Source: an uncultured delta proteobacterium
Lineage (GTDB): Bacteria > Desulfobacterota > Binatia > UBA9968
Direction: 5' to 3'
DNA: 64,000 bases
Assembly: GCA_963816145.1 (NCBI GenBank)
Contig: CAWFJP010000013.1
Coordinates: 128,001-192,000, forward strand
Part shown: one piece after another, positions 9,582 to 16,007 of the stretch
How the letters are laid out: every line of letters starts with the position of its first letter
Position numbering within the stretch: the first letter of the stretch is position 1
The notes under the pieces: generated by a model
Databases searched by the model: none
What the model was told of the DNA's origin: nothing
Seen by the model: only the letters and a program-made list of their open reading frames with translations
Program-made: the position numbers and the translations under genes

Positions 9582-10538
9582 ATGGAGGTCGATATGAAAC
9601 GGATCAGCGTGCATGGAATCTTCGTCCTCGCTTTCTGGTGGATTGGCGTGCAACCCGCGGCGGCTCAGTCCACGACTCTACACGTCGGCTTCAACGGTTT
9701 TTACGGTGCAGCGCCCCTTTACGTCGCTCAAGACGCCGGCATCTTCCGCAAACACGGATTCACGCTCGAAATGGTTTTTATCGCGGGCGGTTCGCTTTCC
9801 ACGCAGGCGTTGATCGGAAAGAGTCTCGATCTCCTCCAGACCGGCGGCCCGCCTTTTCTGAACGCCTACCTAAGGGGGGCACGGCTCAAGATTATCGCGG
9901 GCGTTACCAATATTCTGCCTTATGTCTTGATAACGGGCAGTCGCATTACCAGCCCAGAGCAGTTGCGTGGCAAAAAGATCGGCATCAGCCGCTTCGGCAG
10001 CAACACCGATTTCGTGGTGCGGCTCGCGCTCGGGCAGCTGGGCTTGAATCCTGCGGACGTGACGGTCCTTCAGGTAGGAGGCTCGCAGTCCCGGTTGGTG
10101 GCGCTCAAAGCCGGAACCATCGACGCGACGGTCCTGAGCCCGGAGGAAGCGCTGGCGGCGCAGAAGGTCGGTTTGAACCCGCTCCTTGACTTCGTCGCCA
10201 AGGGCGTCGAATTCCCTCACGTGTGCATCGTGGCCCGTGAAGAATACCTGCAGGCGCAAGCGCCGCTCGTGAAGCGCTTCATGACCGCTTATGTCGAGGG
10301 GATCCGTTTTTTCAAAACGCGCAAGGAGGAATCGGTGCGTAAAATGATGGTGCTGAGCCGATTAAACGACCGGGAGATCGCGGAGAAAGCGTTTGACGTT
10401 TATAGTCGTTCCCTGCCGGACGATGGCCGACCCACGATGAAGGGGCTCGAATCGGTTCTGGCGGACGTTGCCCGAGACGAGCCGAAAGCCAAAGGTTTGA
10501 ACGTCGCACAAATCGTCGACCTCAGCTTCCTTCCATAA
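9582..10538 (+). CDS. ABC transporter substrate-binding protein, NMT1/THI5/SsuA-like
   Basis: Signal peptide; PLYVAQDAGIFRKHG, LRGKKIGISRFGSNTD, ALKAGTIDA. Confidence 0.9.
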   Translation: MEVDMKRISVHGIFVLAFWWIGVQPAAAQSTTLHVGFNGFYGAAPLYVAQDAGIFRKHGFTLEMVFIAGGSLSTQALIGKSLDLLQTGGPPFLNAYLRGARLKIIAGVTNILPYVLITGSRITSPEQLRGKKIGISRFGSNTDFVVRLALGQLGLNPADVTVLQVGGSQSRLVALKAGTIDATVLSPEEALAAQKVGLNPLLDFVAKGVEFPHVCIVAREEYLQAQAPLVKRFMTAYVEGIRFFKTRKEESVRKMMVLSRLNDREIAEKAFDVYSRSLPDDGRPTMKGLESVLADVARDEPKAKGLNVAQIVDLSFLP

Positions 10539-10546
10539 AATAGCGG

Positions 10547-10666
10547 CGAATGTTCAAATCGTTTATAGCCTGCCCTGAGTTGATCGAAGGATTCAACCAC
10601 TTCGCTCCGTTCAAGCCGTTTGAGTCCAGTGCGTTCCAATCGTTCAAACAGTTCAAGTCGTTCAAT
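10547..10666. repeat. GTTCAA-periodic intergenic repeat, copy B, with an internal CCCTGAGTTGATCGAAGG insert
   Basis: Direct repeat of 9374-9463 with about 30 extra bp. Confidence 0.8.
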
Positions 10667-10684
10667 GGCTGGCCTCCGATAGGA

Positions 10685-11443
10685 TCACCCCGCGCGCATC
10701 TTGAGCAGTATCGGAATATCTGTGGTCCCCTGATACAGACGGAGTTCTTTTTCTTTGCTCTGCGCGGCGAGCATGGCCATGCGGTCGGCGAGTTCGTTGC
10801 CTTCGGTGCCGACATGGGCGGCGACATGGGTAAGGTTGAGCTGTTTCTTGATGCGTAAAAAGATCGCGTAGCAGTCCTGGATAATTTCCAAATTCTTGAT
10901 CTCGCCGCCGGGTTTCTTCCAGCCTCTTTTTTCCCAACCCGGCGCCCAACTGCGAATGCAGTTGATCGAGTACGCCGAGTCGCTGCAAATCTCGACGCTG
11001 TTGCCGATGTTGATTTCCGCTTCGGCCATGCGCAAGGCGTGGTAGAGCGCGTTCAGCTCGGCGGTGTTGTTGGTGCCCATCGGGTGGTATAGGCCAAACC
11101 ACAATTGCGCGAGCTTGCCGGCGCGATAGACGACGATGCCGGAACCGGCATTACCCGGGTTGGGTTCGCAGGCACCGTCGCAATAAATGCTAATGTCGAA
11201 CTGGTGCGCGGTATGCGCGGCCCGATGAGTGCTGTTCCGCGTGCCGGCTTTGGTAACGCCTGCGGTTTTCGACGGATTCGTTGCGCTGGCGCCGCAACCG
11301 AAGGCCTGCTCGGCTTCCGCCCGGGTCGCGAAGGACTTGAAGCGTGCCCCGGCAAACTTGTCGACCGCCCGCTGAGCGGTTGGCCAATCGGTGAAAACAC
11401 CGGTCTGCCGTCCTGACCATACCACGTAGAATTTTTGCGCCAT
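10685..11443 (-). CDS. rnhA: Ribonuclease HI with an N-terminal hybrid-binding (Cauli_VI) domain
   Basis: FYVVWSGRQTGVFTDW N-domain; YCDGAC, TNNTAEL, SDSAY, HVAAHVGTEGNELADR catalytic motifs. Confidence 0.93.
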   Translation of the reverse strand: MAQKFYVVWSGRQTGVFTDWPTAQRAVDKFAGARFKSFATRAEAEQAFGCGASATNPSKTAGVTKAGTRNSTHRAAHTAHQFDISIYCDGACEPNPGNAGSGIVVYRAGKLAQLWFGLYHPMGTNNTAELNALYHALRMAEAEINIGNSVEICSDSAYSINCIRSWAPGWEKRGWKKPGGEIKNLEIIQDCYAIFLRIKKQLNLTHVAAHVGTEGNELADRMAMLAAQSKEKELRLYQGTTDIPILLKMRAG

Positions 11444-11652
11444 GCTGCGTCGATCCGTTTATCTTAGAAATGAGTTCTTCAGGCTTTGGTTTGAATGGTC
11501 TAGCACAGTCGGTTTGATTTTTTCACCACGAAGCACCCAACACGGCAGAGCCGCAACAGATTTAGCAAGAAAATGTCCACCACGAAGTGTCCGTGAGCTT
11601 ACGCCCGTCTACAGAGTATGAAATTCCAGCCCCCCCTGCACGCCCGCCGAGT

Positions 11653-11722
11653 CGTCATCCCGGCGAAGGCCGGCATCCTGGCGACAGAGGGGGGATGGAT
11701 ACCGGCTTTCGCCGGTATGACG
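11653..11722. repeat. REP-like inverted pair
   Basis: CGTCATCCCGGCGAAGGCCGGCATCC ... GGATACCGGCTTTCGCCGGTATGACG; each arm is itself palindromic; CACGAAG motifs nearby (about 11527, 11581, 11781). Confidence 0.8.
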
Positions 11723-11901
11723 GAAGTCCCATGCCAATTCGTCGCCCAGATCGTGCTTGGCATGTACATTCTAAGAAGGACACGAAGAGCACGAAGTTCG
11801 GAGTCTAGATTATTCGAACCCTTCGTTTCCAACGTGGAGAGAACACCTTCAAAGTAAACCCGCAAGCATCTAATAGCGTCAGATTTTGGTTCTAGCAATT
11901 C

Positions 11902-11918
11902 CGCGTCGCCCGGACGCG
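11902..11918 (-). promoter_or_regulatory. Putative bacterial SECIS hairpin for selO
   Basis: Minus strand CGCGTC-CGGGC-GACGCG starts 12 nt after the in-frame TGA at 11933-11931; G at loop position 2. Confidence 0.55.
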
Positions 11919-11921
11919 TGA

Positions 11922-13418
11922 TCAGGTGCCTCAAAAAGTTTGGTAGCGCGCTCCTCCTTCGGTCGCTGGTTCGGCAAAGGCGGCAAACTCTGGCTGATCG
12001 TCGAAAGGATGCTCCAGGATATGCAGCAGTGTTTCGAAAGGCGCGTAATCGCCGCGTTCGACGGCGGCGCTCAAGGCTTCCTCGACGCGCTGATTGCGCG
12101 GAATAAACGCGGGATTAACCCGGCGCATCGCCTGCGCCCGCGCCATGGGGTCCGCCGCCTCGCGCGCCAGGCGCGCCCGCCAGCGGCTGCGCCAGAGATC
12201 ATACGCCGACGGATCGGCAAACAGGGCGCGAATCAATTCGTCGTTGCCTAATGCTGCATCGGCGAGGTAACGGAACGCCAACGTGTAGTCGACGTGCCTG
12301 CCTTCCATGGCGCTGAGAAAGCCGGTGGCGAGGTTGATATCGGCCTCATCCGCGCCGGTCAGTCCCAGCTTGGCGCGCATGCCGGTCAGCCAGTGGCGCT
12401 GGTATTGGTCCGGAAAGGCATGAATCACATCGGTGGCGCGGGCGATGGCACGATTATTATCCTCATCGATCAGCGGTAGCAGCGTCTCGGCGAGCCGCGC
12501 CAGGTTCCACTGCGCGATGCTGGGCTGATTGGCGTAGGCGTAGCGGCCTCGCGTGTCGATGGAGCTGAAGACCGTTGCCGGATCGTAATGATCCATGAAG
12601 GCGCATGGGCCGTAGTCGATGGTCTCGCCTGAGATCGCCATATTGTCGGTGTTCATCACGCCATGGATGAAGCCGACATGCATCCAGCTGGCGACGAGAG
12701 CCGCTTGGCGGTCGCACACGCGCTCAAGCAATTCCAAGTAGGGGGCCGTGCGGCGTTTCAATTCCGGGTAGTGGCGCTCGATCACGTAATCGGCCAAACG
12801 GCGCACCTTGTCTTGTTCGCCGCGGGCGGCGAATAGTTGAAATGTGCCGACACGGATGTGGCTCGCGGCGATGCGCGTCAAAACCGCGCCCGGTAGCGCG
12901 GTCTCTCGATAGACCGGCTCGCCGGTGACTACTGCAGCGAGCGCCCGAGTCGTCGGGATACCCAGCGCGTGCATCGCTTCACCGATCAAATATTCCCGCA
13001 ATACCGGCCCGAGCGCCGCCCGACCGTCGCCCCTGCGCGAAAAAGGCGTGGGCCCTGAACCTTTGAGCTGAATGTCGCGACGCCGTCCGTTGCGGTCGAT
13101 TACCTCCCCCAGGAGCAGCGCGCGGCCGTCGCCCAGTTGCGGCGAGAAGCCGCCGAACTGATGGCCGGCGTAGGCTTGCGCTAGCGGCAGCGCTCCTCCG
13201 GGCGTCTCGTTGCCGGCAAAAATCCTGGCGCCTTCATCGGAATCGAGGGCCGCGGCGTCGAGCCCCAATTCATCGGCCAACTGAGGGTTGAATTTGACCA
13301 TCCTCGGCTGCGCCACTTGCGCTGCCTTCCACGGCACGTAGAGACCCTCGAGTGCGCGCGCGTAGGTGTTGTCGAAGACAAAGCGTGCGGCGCTGGTTTG
13401 GTTAGGGACTTGCGTCAT
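11922..13418 (-). CDS. selO: Protein adenylyltransferase SelO/YdiU with a putative C-terminal Sec (YQTF-U-GT)
   Basis: AYAGHQFG...QLGDGRA, QLKGSGPTPFSRRGDGRA, GFIHGVMNTDN, TIDYGP; the ORF track stops at TGA 11931 but GGC ACC TGA follows, matching the usual TFCGT end. Confidence 0.92.
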
Positions 13419-13604
13419 TGGCTTATTCCTTGGTCAGAGGGATCAGCGTCTCCTCGGCTCTCATTGTTCGCGAAATCAATAGAAATATCTAGAGCCGTTC
13501 GGAAGCACGGGCCGATTCCTCAGCATGACGCGCCCCTGGCGGCCAGTAAACTCGGCCACTTGGAATTTTTGACTTTGATGACGCCGCTCTGGTGATCGAA
13601 CGGT

Positions 13605-14585
13605 TTATGGCTTCCAACCAGCTTGGGTCAACTCGCTGTCGGCTTTCTTGGCAAAACTGAAATCGTAGGCGCGCTCGATGGCCACTTCCTTGGCGCCTTT
13701 GAGGACCTCGCGAACGATGTCGAGATCGTTTTTCTGGGTTTCTTCGTCGACCACGCCATTGGCGGTGAATGTACCGATCATGCCGTCGTAGGTGCGCGCG
13801 GCGAGATCTCTGTCCAACTCGGAGAATTTCATCATCGCCTCCATGGCGACCTCGCGGTTCTGCTTGACCAGGCGCAGGGCTTTGAGCAGGGCACGCGTGA
13901 ATCCTTGCATCAACTTGGGCTTGGTTTTGATGAATTGATCGTTGGTTGCGATGGTGCCCCAGGAATTTTTCACTTCTTTGCCGAGATACAGGATCTCTTT
14001 CATGCCTTGATCGAGGGCGGCAAAGCGTTCCTCCGAACTCAATAGCCCGGCATCCACGACTCCCGACTGAAGCGCCGCGAGGCGCTGCCCCGGCGGCAGG
14101 GCGAGAAAGGTCAAATCCTTGTTGGCGTCGAGGCCGTACTTTGCCGCAACCTTTTTCAACATAAACGTCGCCACCGCGGCGACGCCGGTTACGGCGATCT
14201 TCTTATTCTTCAGGTCTTTGAAAGCGCTGTACTGGGGCCGAACCATCAGCCATTGGAGCACCTGATCGGTGATGGCCAAGACGGTTTTTAGTGGCGCGTT
14301 GCCTTGAGTGACGGCGACCAGGGCGCTGCTGCCGGAACCGGTGAAATCCATTTCTCCGGCGAGCACCGCCTGAAGGCCGGGGGTGGAGGCCATGATGACG
14401 GTGTTGAGGTCGATCCCTTCCTCTTTCATGTAACCCCGCTCCTTGGCGAGCGGAAAGATAATGAATTGAAACGATTTCGACGGCAGGGTGACGTTGATTC
14501 TATCGAGGGCAAACACCGATTTGCCGGGCAGCAACAACATGCCGATCAGCAGCGGCGCGATCATCGACAGAGTGATTTTTTTCAT
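13605..14585 (-). CDS. ABC transporter substrate-binding protein, NMT1/THI5-like
   Basis: Signal peptide; LAKERGYMKEEGID, DLKNKKIAV, AALQSGVVDAG. Confidence 0.88.
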   Translation of the reverse strand: MKKITLSMIAPLLIGMLLLPGKSVFALDRINVTLPSKSFQFIIFPLAKERGYMKEEGIDLNTVIMASTPGLQAVLAGEMDFTGSGSSALVAVTQGNAPLKTVLAITDQVLQWLMVRPQYSAFKDLKNKKIAVTGVAAVATFMLKKVAAKYGLDANKDLTFLALPPGQRLAALQSGVVDAGLLSSEERFAALDQGMKEILYLGKEVKNSWGTIATNDQFIKTKPKLMQGFTRALLKALRLVKQNREVAMEAMMKFSELDRDLAARTYDGMIGTFTANGVVDEETQKNDLDIVREVLKGAKEVAIERAYDFSFAKKADSELTQAGWKP

Positions 14586-14782
14586 CGTTCAGTCCCTCCT
14601 GAAAATAGGCTACCGAGCAGGCACCGAAAACGTTTGACGCCCACATTATAAAAGCCAATTCTCTATGTCGAGGGGGAATTTTGCCGTTGAAAGGGGATGG
14701 GCTCGATCTGTTCCGGATTTCTCAGCGATCCAGCGTTTGCGCTGGTTCTATCAGTTCCGGATGTTGTTTGAAGCGCTCGCTT

Positions 14783-15802
14783 CTAAACGGCGTCGGCGAG
14801 CCGGTAGAGCAAGGCTTTGGTTTCCTCGAATCCGAGGCAGGCATCGGTAATGCTCTGACCGTATGTGACGGGGGAGTTCTGACGGCCGGCGACCAGGTGG
14901 CTCTCGATCATCAGCGCTCGAACCGGCGAAGTTCTCAGGTTCTTCATGATCGCGTCGGCCACATCGATCTGTCGGGCGGCGTCCTTGCCGCTGTTACCGT
15001 GGCTGCAGTCAACCATCACGATTTCGGCAAGATGCGCCGCGCGAAGCAGTCGCACTGCAGCTTCGATAGAAACCACATCGAAGTTCGGTCCGGTCTCGCT
15101 GCCGCCGCGAAGCACGAGATGCGCGTATGGATTGCCGGTGGTTTCCAGGATGGCAGGGGCGCCTTCCTTGGTGAGGGAGGGGAACAGGTGGCGGCTCCGG
15201 GCGGCCTGAATTGCGTCTACGGCCACCTGGACGTTACCGTCGGTGCGGTTCTTGATACCGACTGGCATCGACAAACCCGACGCCAGCTCTCGATGGATTT
15301 GGCTCTCAGCGGTGCGTGCGCCGATGGCGCCCCAGCTGATCAGATCGGTGTAGAACTGGCCGAAGGTGGTGTCGAGAAACTCGGTGCCGGCGGCGACGCC
15401 CAGCTCGAGAATATCGGCGAGCAACTGGCGTGCGAGCCGGAGGCCCTTGTTGATGTGATACGATTCATCTAAATCCGGATCGTTGATGAGCCCTTTCCAG
15501 CCGACGACCGTGCGCGGCTTTTCGAAGTAGACGCGCATGACAATCAGCAGCGCATCGGCGAGCGCGTCCGCAATCGGGCTGAGTTTACTCGCGTATTCGA
15601 GCGCGGCCCTGGTGTCGTGGATGGAACAAGGCCCGACGATCACTAGGAGCCGCGCATCCTTGCCGTCCAGAATCGCCTCGATGGCGCGGCGCGACTCGTA
15701 GACTTTTCCTGATGCAGCCTCGGTAAGTGGGATCTCCTCGGCAAGTATCGCCGGTGCGAGCAGGGGATGGGTTTTAACGATGCGTAGATCGTCGGTTTTC
15801 AT
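14783..15802 (-). CDS. DAHP synthase, class I-alpha (AroF/G/H family)
   Basis: GPCSIHD, RVYFEKPRT, WGAIGART, DCSHGNS, YGQSITDAC; start at MKTDDLRI. Confidence 0.95.
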   Translation of the reverse strand: MKTDDLRIVKTHPLLAPAILAEEIPLTEAASGKVYESRRAIEAILDGKDARLLVIVGPCSIHDTRAALEYASKLSPIADALADALLIVMRVYFEKPRTVVGWKGLINDPDLDESYHINKGLRLARQLLADILELGVAAGTEFLDTTFGQFYTDLISWGAIGARTAESQIHRELASGLSMPVGIKNRTDGNVQVAVDAIQAARSRHLFPSLTKEGAPAILETTGNPYAHLVLRGGSETGPNFDVVSIEAAVRLLRAAHLAEIVMVDCSHGNSGKDAARQIDVADAIMKNLRTSPVRALMIESHLVAGRQNSPVTYGQSITDACLGFEETKALLYRLADAV

Positions 15803-16007
15803 AGTCCGGGTTGCGTCAGCGGATACCCTAGAATTCTGCTGACCGCCGAGCGTCGCCGCCGTTCCAAAAACACAGTGGAATCGCCGGCGGAGCAAGGTGA
15901 ATCCGATTCGGCATTTCAATAGAGGGTAGTCGATTACGAGAAATTCTGTCAATCGAAGACCCAGACCCGTAGGATTGAAATTTGTCCTGAATCCAAAACT
16001 ACAAGAT

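Follow-up and report, generated by a model that had tools for sequence, protein, structure and literature searches.

A predicted selenocysteine form of the SelO protein, with a candidate 3'-UTR SECIS hairpin, in uncultured Binatia-type bacteria

Does the UGA codon that closes the annotated SelO gene of an uncultured Binatia-type bacterium end the protein, or is it read as selenocysteine (Sec)? The gene lies on the minus strand of the 64,000-nt stretch of DNA analyzed here (the window; assembly GCA_963816145.1, contig CAWFJP010000013.1, positions 128,001 to 192,000), where translation table 11 gives an open reading frame (ORF) of 495 codons before a TGA. SelO is the most widely conserved selenoprotein and pseudokinase family. 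Direct reading of the end of the gene gives CGC TAC CAA ACT TTT TGA GGC ACC TGA TCA followed by CGCGTC-CGGGC-GACGCG, i.e. YQTF, a UGA, GT and a stop, and then a perfect 6-bp hairpin, exactly as a first-pass annotation of this DNA had described. That annotation took the UGA to be recoded, and we consider it very probable that the codon is indeed translated as Sec with the aid of a hairpin within the 3' untranslated region (UTR), because the genome holds the Sec machinery, the family and the position are those of a known selenoprotein, the codon alternates between TGA and Cys in relatives, coding sequence continues past the TGA, the hairpin is tied to the TGA, and its spacing falls in the published range.

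By family, the gene product is a predicted 498-residue SelO/YdiU protein AMPylase. The protein matches Pfam PF02696 (SelO) with 398.5 bits against a cut-off of 22.8 over residues 19-467, and NCBIfam NF000658 (YdiU family) with 584.6 bits against a cut-off of 431; scores to the equivalog models NF045949 (444 vs 850) and NF040880 (414 vs 900) lie below their cut-offs, so that it is a member of the SelO family and not an equivalog of those subgroups. The stretches GHQFG, IQLKGSG, HGVMNTDN and IDYGP of the kinase-like active site, which we take to hold the catalytic residues, are identical or near-identical in the solved chain 6eac and in E. coli-type chains. Four solved bacterial SelO structures match over residues 12-496 with about 350 bits (355 bits for PDB 6eac), and in these alignments the UGA codon, as residue U496, falls on Cys486 of 6eac (P. 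syringae, Cys486/488), Cys476 of 6k20 (E. coli-type, Cys476/478), Cys480 of 6iii and Cys489 of 9jym. That this C-terminal Cys of bacterial SelO corresponds to the Sec of the eukaryotic protein is stated in a review, which says that in E. coli SelO a disulfide joining Cys272 of the activation loop to Cys476 has a regulatory role, and that Cys476 is Sec in higher eukaryotes (PMC7278666). Human SelO is described as carrying Sec667 of 669 residues in a CxxU motif (in part of PMC3994087).

The hairpin, CGCGUC-CGGGC-GACGCG in RNA, spans 17 nt with a perfect 6-bp stem and a G at loop position 2; it starts 12 nt after the first UGA and 3 nt past the true stop codon, in agreement with the geometry first reported. 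The apical loop lies 18 nt from the UGA, inside the range of 16-37 nt that a passage of PMC10778597 gives for bacterial Sec insertion sequence (SECIS) elements. By an ad hoc criterion (a stem of at least 6 bp with at least 5 G-C pairs, an offset of 10-14 nt and a G-bearing loop), such hairpins follow 28 of 3021 (0.9%) TGA-terminated open frames of at least 200 codons in the genome. A UGA with a hairpin in a single sequence is thus suggestive only and no proof beyond chance alone; genome context and comparative evidence are what take the observation beyond chance.

The genome (7.8 Mb in 31 contigs) contains the complete Sec machinery. The first-pass annotation had named selA, selB, selC and selD as the genes to look for, and all four are present on one contig (C30): selA, selB and selD, which score 616, 417 and 380 bits, lie one after another at C30:562492-566803, and selC, a tRNA-Sec of 74.2 bits with the ARAGORN anticodon tca (UCA), lies about 10 kb away at C30:576761-576851. 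The selD gene is itself of the Sec type, with its own in-frame TGA (..VKAAG-U-AAKLG..), and one in-frame TGA per gene was found in 12 of the 22 matches to AhpC-TSA and in 5 of the 18 to CMD (AhpD-like). By direct reading, these candidate selenoprotein TGAs have hairpins starting 10-15 nt downstream with G-rich loops, such as GGUC-CGGGU-GACC at +12 in selD, GCAUC-CGGGGC-GAUGC at +12 in one CMD gene and CAGCU-CGGGA-AGCUG at +15 in one peroxiredoxin gene; the SelO hairpin is of the same type in offset and loop. A criterion hairpin at +10 to +14 stands behind 12 of the 18 candidate selenoprotein TGA sites (SelO included) as against 104 of 3021 (3.4%) TGA-ended control frames. Two TGA-containing AhpC-TSA/CMD candidates are located just upstream of the window, at C13:117236-117427 and C13:123533-123811.

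Relatives bear directly on the codon. Of the 123 genomes surveyed in the GTDB order, among them that of the window (NCBI taxonomy places Binatia within the phylum Candidatus Binatota), 48 have SelO, and among the 44 with a readable C-terminus the aligned codon is TGA in 25 and TGC in 19, with Gly-Thr-stop always next; counted as unique orthologous 3' ends, 26 have TGA and 19 have TGC at the U496 codon. One row of this census, from genome G485 and covering residues 1-203, is the basis of no claim made here. When 27 unique TGA-type 3' ends are aligned, the two codons after the TGA (GGN ACN) vary at third positions only, the other bases and the stop being invariant, while the spacer of 3-5 nt between stop and hairpin and the sequence past the hairpin vary freely and the hairpin core GCGUC-CGGGN-GACGC is nearly invariant. 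The stop after Gly-Thr is TGA in all 27 Sec forms and TGA, TAA or TAG in Cys forms. The 15-nt core is exact in 16 of the 26 unique Sec 3' ends, has one mismatch in 8 and two in 1 (with U-A changed to U-G in the stem), and in the last carries a 1-nt loop insertion. None of the 19 Cys forms has an intact hairpin; 4 of these 19 retain relics within 4 mismatches of the 15-mer, compared with 24 of 7923 (0.3%) control frames. The expectation that homologous 3' ends would show TGA/TGY alternation and a covarying hairpin was therefore borne out in part: the alternation is found at the exact codon, with the hairpin only beside TGA, but the stem is almost invariant and shows no significant covariation. 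In a sample at phylum level, SelO was present in 22 of 400 other genomes, none with a C-terminal TGA, and all 8 outgroup genes in which the C-terminal motif was found have TGT or TGC and no such hairpin.

In a protein tree of 51 rows, the 42 ingroup rows (24 Sec and 18 Cys) are interleaved, and an intact hairpin accompanies 24/24 of the Sec rows and 0/18 of the Cys rows. At least 10 Sec/Cys changes are needed within the ingroup, of which well-supported branches force at least 2, and a topology with all Sec rows as a single clade is rejected (approximately unbiased (AU) test, p 0.028). Cys-form Binatia-type genomes keep selB (5/5 tested), so the switch from Sec to Cys is specific to the SelO gene. 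Loss of the Sec trait as the cause of Cys forms was rejected on this ground, selB being present also in 6/6 Cys-form genomes tested of the Reyranellaceae (see below). Probably, Sec and its SECIS were gained once near the base of the clade and the Sec form is ancestral in the Binatia-type clade, with repeated reversion from Sec to Cys and decay of the SECIS; this direction is drawn from the hairpin relics and the outgroup and is not proven.

In two Cys-form genomes, the full gene is accompanied, at a distance of 3-5 kb, by a further, partial copy of the C-terminal ~80 codons of SelO, with 72-75% identity and the ending ..TFCGT (L140, G004:C9:295000-295600; L141, G003:C29:435700-436300), and in genome G478 a second full SelO is present, at 60% identity. 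In two relatives, the gene is in two or three frame-shifted pieces (L042/L049 in G018; L045/L048 in G027) with TGA and hairpin intact, and the shifts may be assembly indels or pseudogenes.

A wider scan uncovered a second lineage. This global pattern scan took one genome per species and only the ending ...Y-x-T-[FY]-U-G-T-TGA, so that other C-terminal motifs or stops are missed; its 47 loci comprise 20 chance matches and 27 TGA-type SelO genes, 26 of the Binatia type and 1 from a Reyranella metagenome-assembled genome (L080). Binatia-type Sec-SelO, in the 77-86% identity band, also appears in three records titled Candidatus Acidiferrales, Pseudomonadota and Chloroflexota (L052, L053, L084), likely through submitter labels or mis-binned contigs rather than transfer. 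SelO is present in 106 of 121 genomes of the Reyranella family, and the C-termini of 29 genes were read: 5 are of the TGA type, all with a distinct 3'-UTR hairpin of the form CUGCUC(C)-loop-(G)GAGCGG, and 13 are Cys forms without this hairpin. All Reyranellaceae genomes tested have selB. Genome G591 in this census has a SelO with 1 TGA at 68% identity.

Several results weigh against the Sec reading of the window's UGA, or limit what the hairpin can contribute to it. The 66-nt fold is no better than that of shuffled sequence (z -0.28; 71/200 shuffles fold equally well). Covariation in the stem is not significant, with 4 of 6 pairs never varying and 137 of 500 shuffles reaching the observed score, and the near-invariance of the stem is the reason why no support can come from this side. 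An Rfam scan gave no match to a SECIS family, its sole match being a spurious long non-coding RNA (E 5.1), and the 15-nt core has no second exact copy in the genome (51 sites at ≤2 mismatches). The link between TGA and hairpin is observed in related sequences, with 2 independent contrasts on well-supported branches and 9 on the best tree; the 2 supported contrasts are too few for any test of TGA against the hairpin, or of TGA against the Cys at -5 discussed below. The remaining 11 of the 29 Reyranellaceae genes are Cys forms (9 TGT, 2 TGC) that keep the hairpin of their lineage, including a variant with a compensatory change from U-A to C-G. In that family, then, the hairpin outlives the use of Sec, comes before it or serves a second function; it may be kept in readiness for Sec use, or even be older than it, and a hairpin after SelO, even a conserved one, is by itself no proof of Sec insertion. 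The case for the window is not much weakened by this, since its own clade loses the hairpin along with the TGA. A sediment metatranscriptome contig of 169 nt (11807-11975) spans TGA, stop and hairpin with 0 differences and is a weak sign of SelO expression, although it may derive from contaminating DNA. Other explanations of the Reyranellaceae pattern and of the core sequence were tried and set aside. Recoding of TGT as Sec in Reyranellaceae was ruled out, the tRNA-Sec anticodon being UCA in 5/5 TGT-form genomes tested. Two near-copies of the 15-nt core lie 13-15 nt after a TGA in the window's genome, in a 27-codon frame and in the 5' leader of an Hsp90-like gene, and are not selenoprotein sites; a third has no TGA within range.

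These results have to be weighed against a genuine stop, by which the protein would end at Phe495 and the hairpin would be a 3'-end RNA element, acting in stability or termination and unrelated to recoding. Gene callers do end the protein there, as the first-pass annotation had foreseen for a gene truncated by 3 residues (window entry P0003 has 495 residues, and 53 of the 120 closest database clusters end ..T[FY], at the TGA), and the ordinary fold energy, the missing covariation and the equivalent hairpin kept in 11 Reyranellaceae Cys forms leave room for another role of the RNA. However, in 27 sequences whose adjoining spacer varies freely, the two codons and the stop that follow the TGA are conserved and change at third positions only; 19 sister genomes and all solved SelO structures have Cys at the very position of the TGA; and in the Binatia-type clade the hairpin decays whenever the codon is TGC. 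A role as intrinsic terminator was examined and rejected, with no U-tract and no terminator-like site at 11500-12100. We therefore judge termination at this codon highly unlikely.

Even if the UGA is read through, Sec-tRNA(Sec) might not be what decodes it, and its place could be taken by a near-cognate tRNA, for Cys or Trp, or by some other mechanism that does not depend on SelB. Against this stand the complete Sec machinery of the genome, the offset and G-rich loop that the hairpin shares with those behind other in-frame TGAs including that of selD, and the nature of the site, a redox Cys whose place is taken by Sec in eukaryotic SELENOO; we give such readthrough a very slight probability. 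The chance that the codon is a sequencing or assembly error for TGC or TGT is negligible. The first-pass annotation had mentioned indel errors elsewhere in the assembly and singled out 11931-11933 for checking, but three DNA runs, each from a different study (wetland and soil), yield public Logan contigs that differ from the window at 0, 0 and 2 positions over 11769-12300 and at none within the codon, where these independent contigs carry TGA, and 24 other genomes of the order have TGA at the same codon. Translation of the UGA as Sec, by analogy with the bacterial SelB/SECIS system, would then proceed as follows: the 17-nt hairpin would be bound by SelB carrying Sec-tRNA(Sec) when the ribosome reaches the UGA, Sec would be inserted, Gly and Thr would be added, and translation would end at the second UGA. 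The inserted Sec would replace the conserved C-terminal Cys, the residue with which, in E. coli SelO, a Cys of the activation loop forms the regulatory disulfide.

What a Sec at this position may do is suggested by the residues around it. Sec496 is most likely a redox-sensing residue that regulates the AMPylase, likely as a more reactive sensor or switch than Cys. The position of E. coli Cys272 is occupied by Phe284 in the window protein, and another Cys of the activation segment, Cys272 within DYGPC, is kept in 51/51 tree sequences. Five residues before the Sec (position -5), the window has Arg491 (codon 11946-11948) and no nearby Cys. Sec forms have Arg or His at -5, whereas most Cys forms show C-Y-x-T-F-C (C-x4-C): Cys stands at -5 in 13 of 18 Cys forms vs 1 of 24 Sec forms of the tree ingroup, and in 54 of 66 Cys forms vs 0 of 53 truncated (Sec-type) forms among the 120 closest database clusters, neither set of counts being phylogenetically independent. 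This suggests that in Sec forms lacking the Cys at -5 the redox switch may have changed from a local dithiol to a lone selenol. A tentative joint reading, possible but in our view rather doubtful, is that evolution toggles the C-terminal redox residue of bacterial SelO between Cys and Sec, with the hairpin standing by in Reyranellaceae and selenium altering the redox switch. Lineages could flip from TGC/TGT (Cys) to TGA (Sec) or back with one changed base because no coding constraint acts on a SECIS in the 3' UTR, and perhaps such toggling tracks the selenium supply in soils.

The novelty implied by the first-pass annotation was too high. Bacterial Sec-SelO was already predicted in 2025, when the deep-Sep report described SelO homologs with Sec as "first detected in certain bacteria" (Desulfosediminicola ganghwensis IMCC35004) with TGA-containing homologs elsewhere (in passages of PMC12013277); a 2026 review of the prokaryotic selenoproteome lists a Selenoprotein O-like family (in part of PMC13188914), and a 2020 review had stated that all prokaryotes have Cys at the SelO C-terminal position (in part of PMC7278666). 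As far as the relevant passages of PMC12013277 go, the D. ganghwensis Selenoprotein O-like protein (COG0397/PF02696) resembles that of the window in its SelO domain, one predicted Sec, Cys homologs and a bacterial SECIS-like (bSECIS) structure after the UGA; it has 538 residues as opposed to 498, and comes from a Desulfosediminicola isolate rather than from uncultured Binatia-type soil bacteria. The first 400 of the 538 characters of its sequence contain no U, so the likeness is drawn by family and the Sec position lies outside the comparison; the passages on this SelO hold no clade-level analysis, SECIS conservation or Sec/Cys switching. No paper in the literature searched links Binatia or Binatota with selenocysteine or a selenoprotein. 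The window's gene accordingly adds a new lineage to a family of bacterial selenoproteins that was predicted only recently, and is not a new kind of selenoprotein.

Comparison with better-known systems places the arrangement further. Eukaryotic SELENOO belongs to the same family and has Sec third from the C-terminus, at the position of the bacterial Cys (in parts of PMC3994087 and PMC7278666), whereas its insertion relies on a eukaryotic SECIS with EFSec/SBP2 and that of the window would rely on a 17-nt SelB-type hairpin 12 nt after the UGA; human SELENOO has Cys at -3 (CxxU), unlike the window with Arg at -5 and its Cys-form sisters, which mostly have C-x4-C. Cys-type bacterial SelO (E. coli and P. 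syringae; 6k20, 6iii, 9jym, 6eac) shares GHQFG, LKG(S/A)G, HGVMNTDN, D(Y/F)GP and the C-terminal Cys-x-x-end architecture, and differs in having Cys in place of the predicted Sec and, in E. coli, an activation-loop Cys272 where the window has Phe284, its own Cys272 standing in DYGPC instead. The closest parallel in layout is mammalian thioredoxin reductase engineered for expression in E. coli, which likewise has Sec near the C-terminus and an untranslated SelB-binding hairpin past the stop and is functional (in a passage of PMC10778597); those constructs use an fdhF-derived SECIS, in contrast to the natural arrangement here, which is conserved across a clade.

The features of the locus are collected in Table 1. 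Among the neighbors of SelO (window 9582-15952) – an RNase H, two NMT1/THI5-like substrate-binding proteins and a DAHP synthase – no obvious redox partner was found. A short intergenic repeat, belonging to a family dispersed in the genome, lies ~100 nt downstream of the SelO stop; in blastn-short searches of the genome its core at 11780-11805 has roughly 100 matches and 11700-11729 about 74, and public contigs break and show depth spikes at the repeat.

Table 1. Coordinates of SelO features and neighboring genes in the window
Feature	Coordinates	Strand	Description and basis
SelO/YdiU protein adenylyltransferase coding sequence through UGA	11925..13418	-	498 codons, M1...F495-U496-G497-T498; translated with TGA=U, ending ...RYQTF-U-GT
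ORF under table 11	11931..13418	-	495 residues; ATG at 13418, TGA at 11933-11931
In-frame UGA, predicted selenocysteine U496	11931..11933	-	TGA/TGC alternation of ortholog codon; alignment to Cys of structures
Gly497 and Thr498 codons after the Sec codon	11925..11930	-	third-position-only variation in orthologs; Cys forms likewise end ...CGT
True stop UGA	11922..11924	-	stop kept at the same position in all orthologs
Candidate bacterial SECIS hairpin, wholly in 3' UTR	11902..11918	-	arms 11918-11913 and 11907-11902, loop CGGGC 11912-11908; direct reading and minimum free energy fold
Possible ribosome-binding site AAGGAA	13426..13431	-	7 nt upstream of ATG at 13418; from direct reading only
NMT1/THI5-like substrate-binding protein	9582..10538	+	
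RNase H	10685..11443	-	
Short intergenic repeat	11655..11810		dispersed family
NMT1/THI5-like substrate-binding protein	13605..14585	-	
DAHP synthase	14783..15952	-	

The locus thus extends a predicted Sec-containing SelO to an entire clade of uncultured bacteria abundant in soil and wetland, in which the gene has been systematically mis-annotated: of the 120 closest database clusters, 53 have calls that stop at the TGA, 3 residues early. By supplying a natural 17-nt 3'-UTR candidate SECIS together with natural pairs of Sec and Cys sisters, this clade would make the role of selenium in the C-terminal redox switch of SelO testable in a bacterial system.

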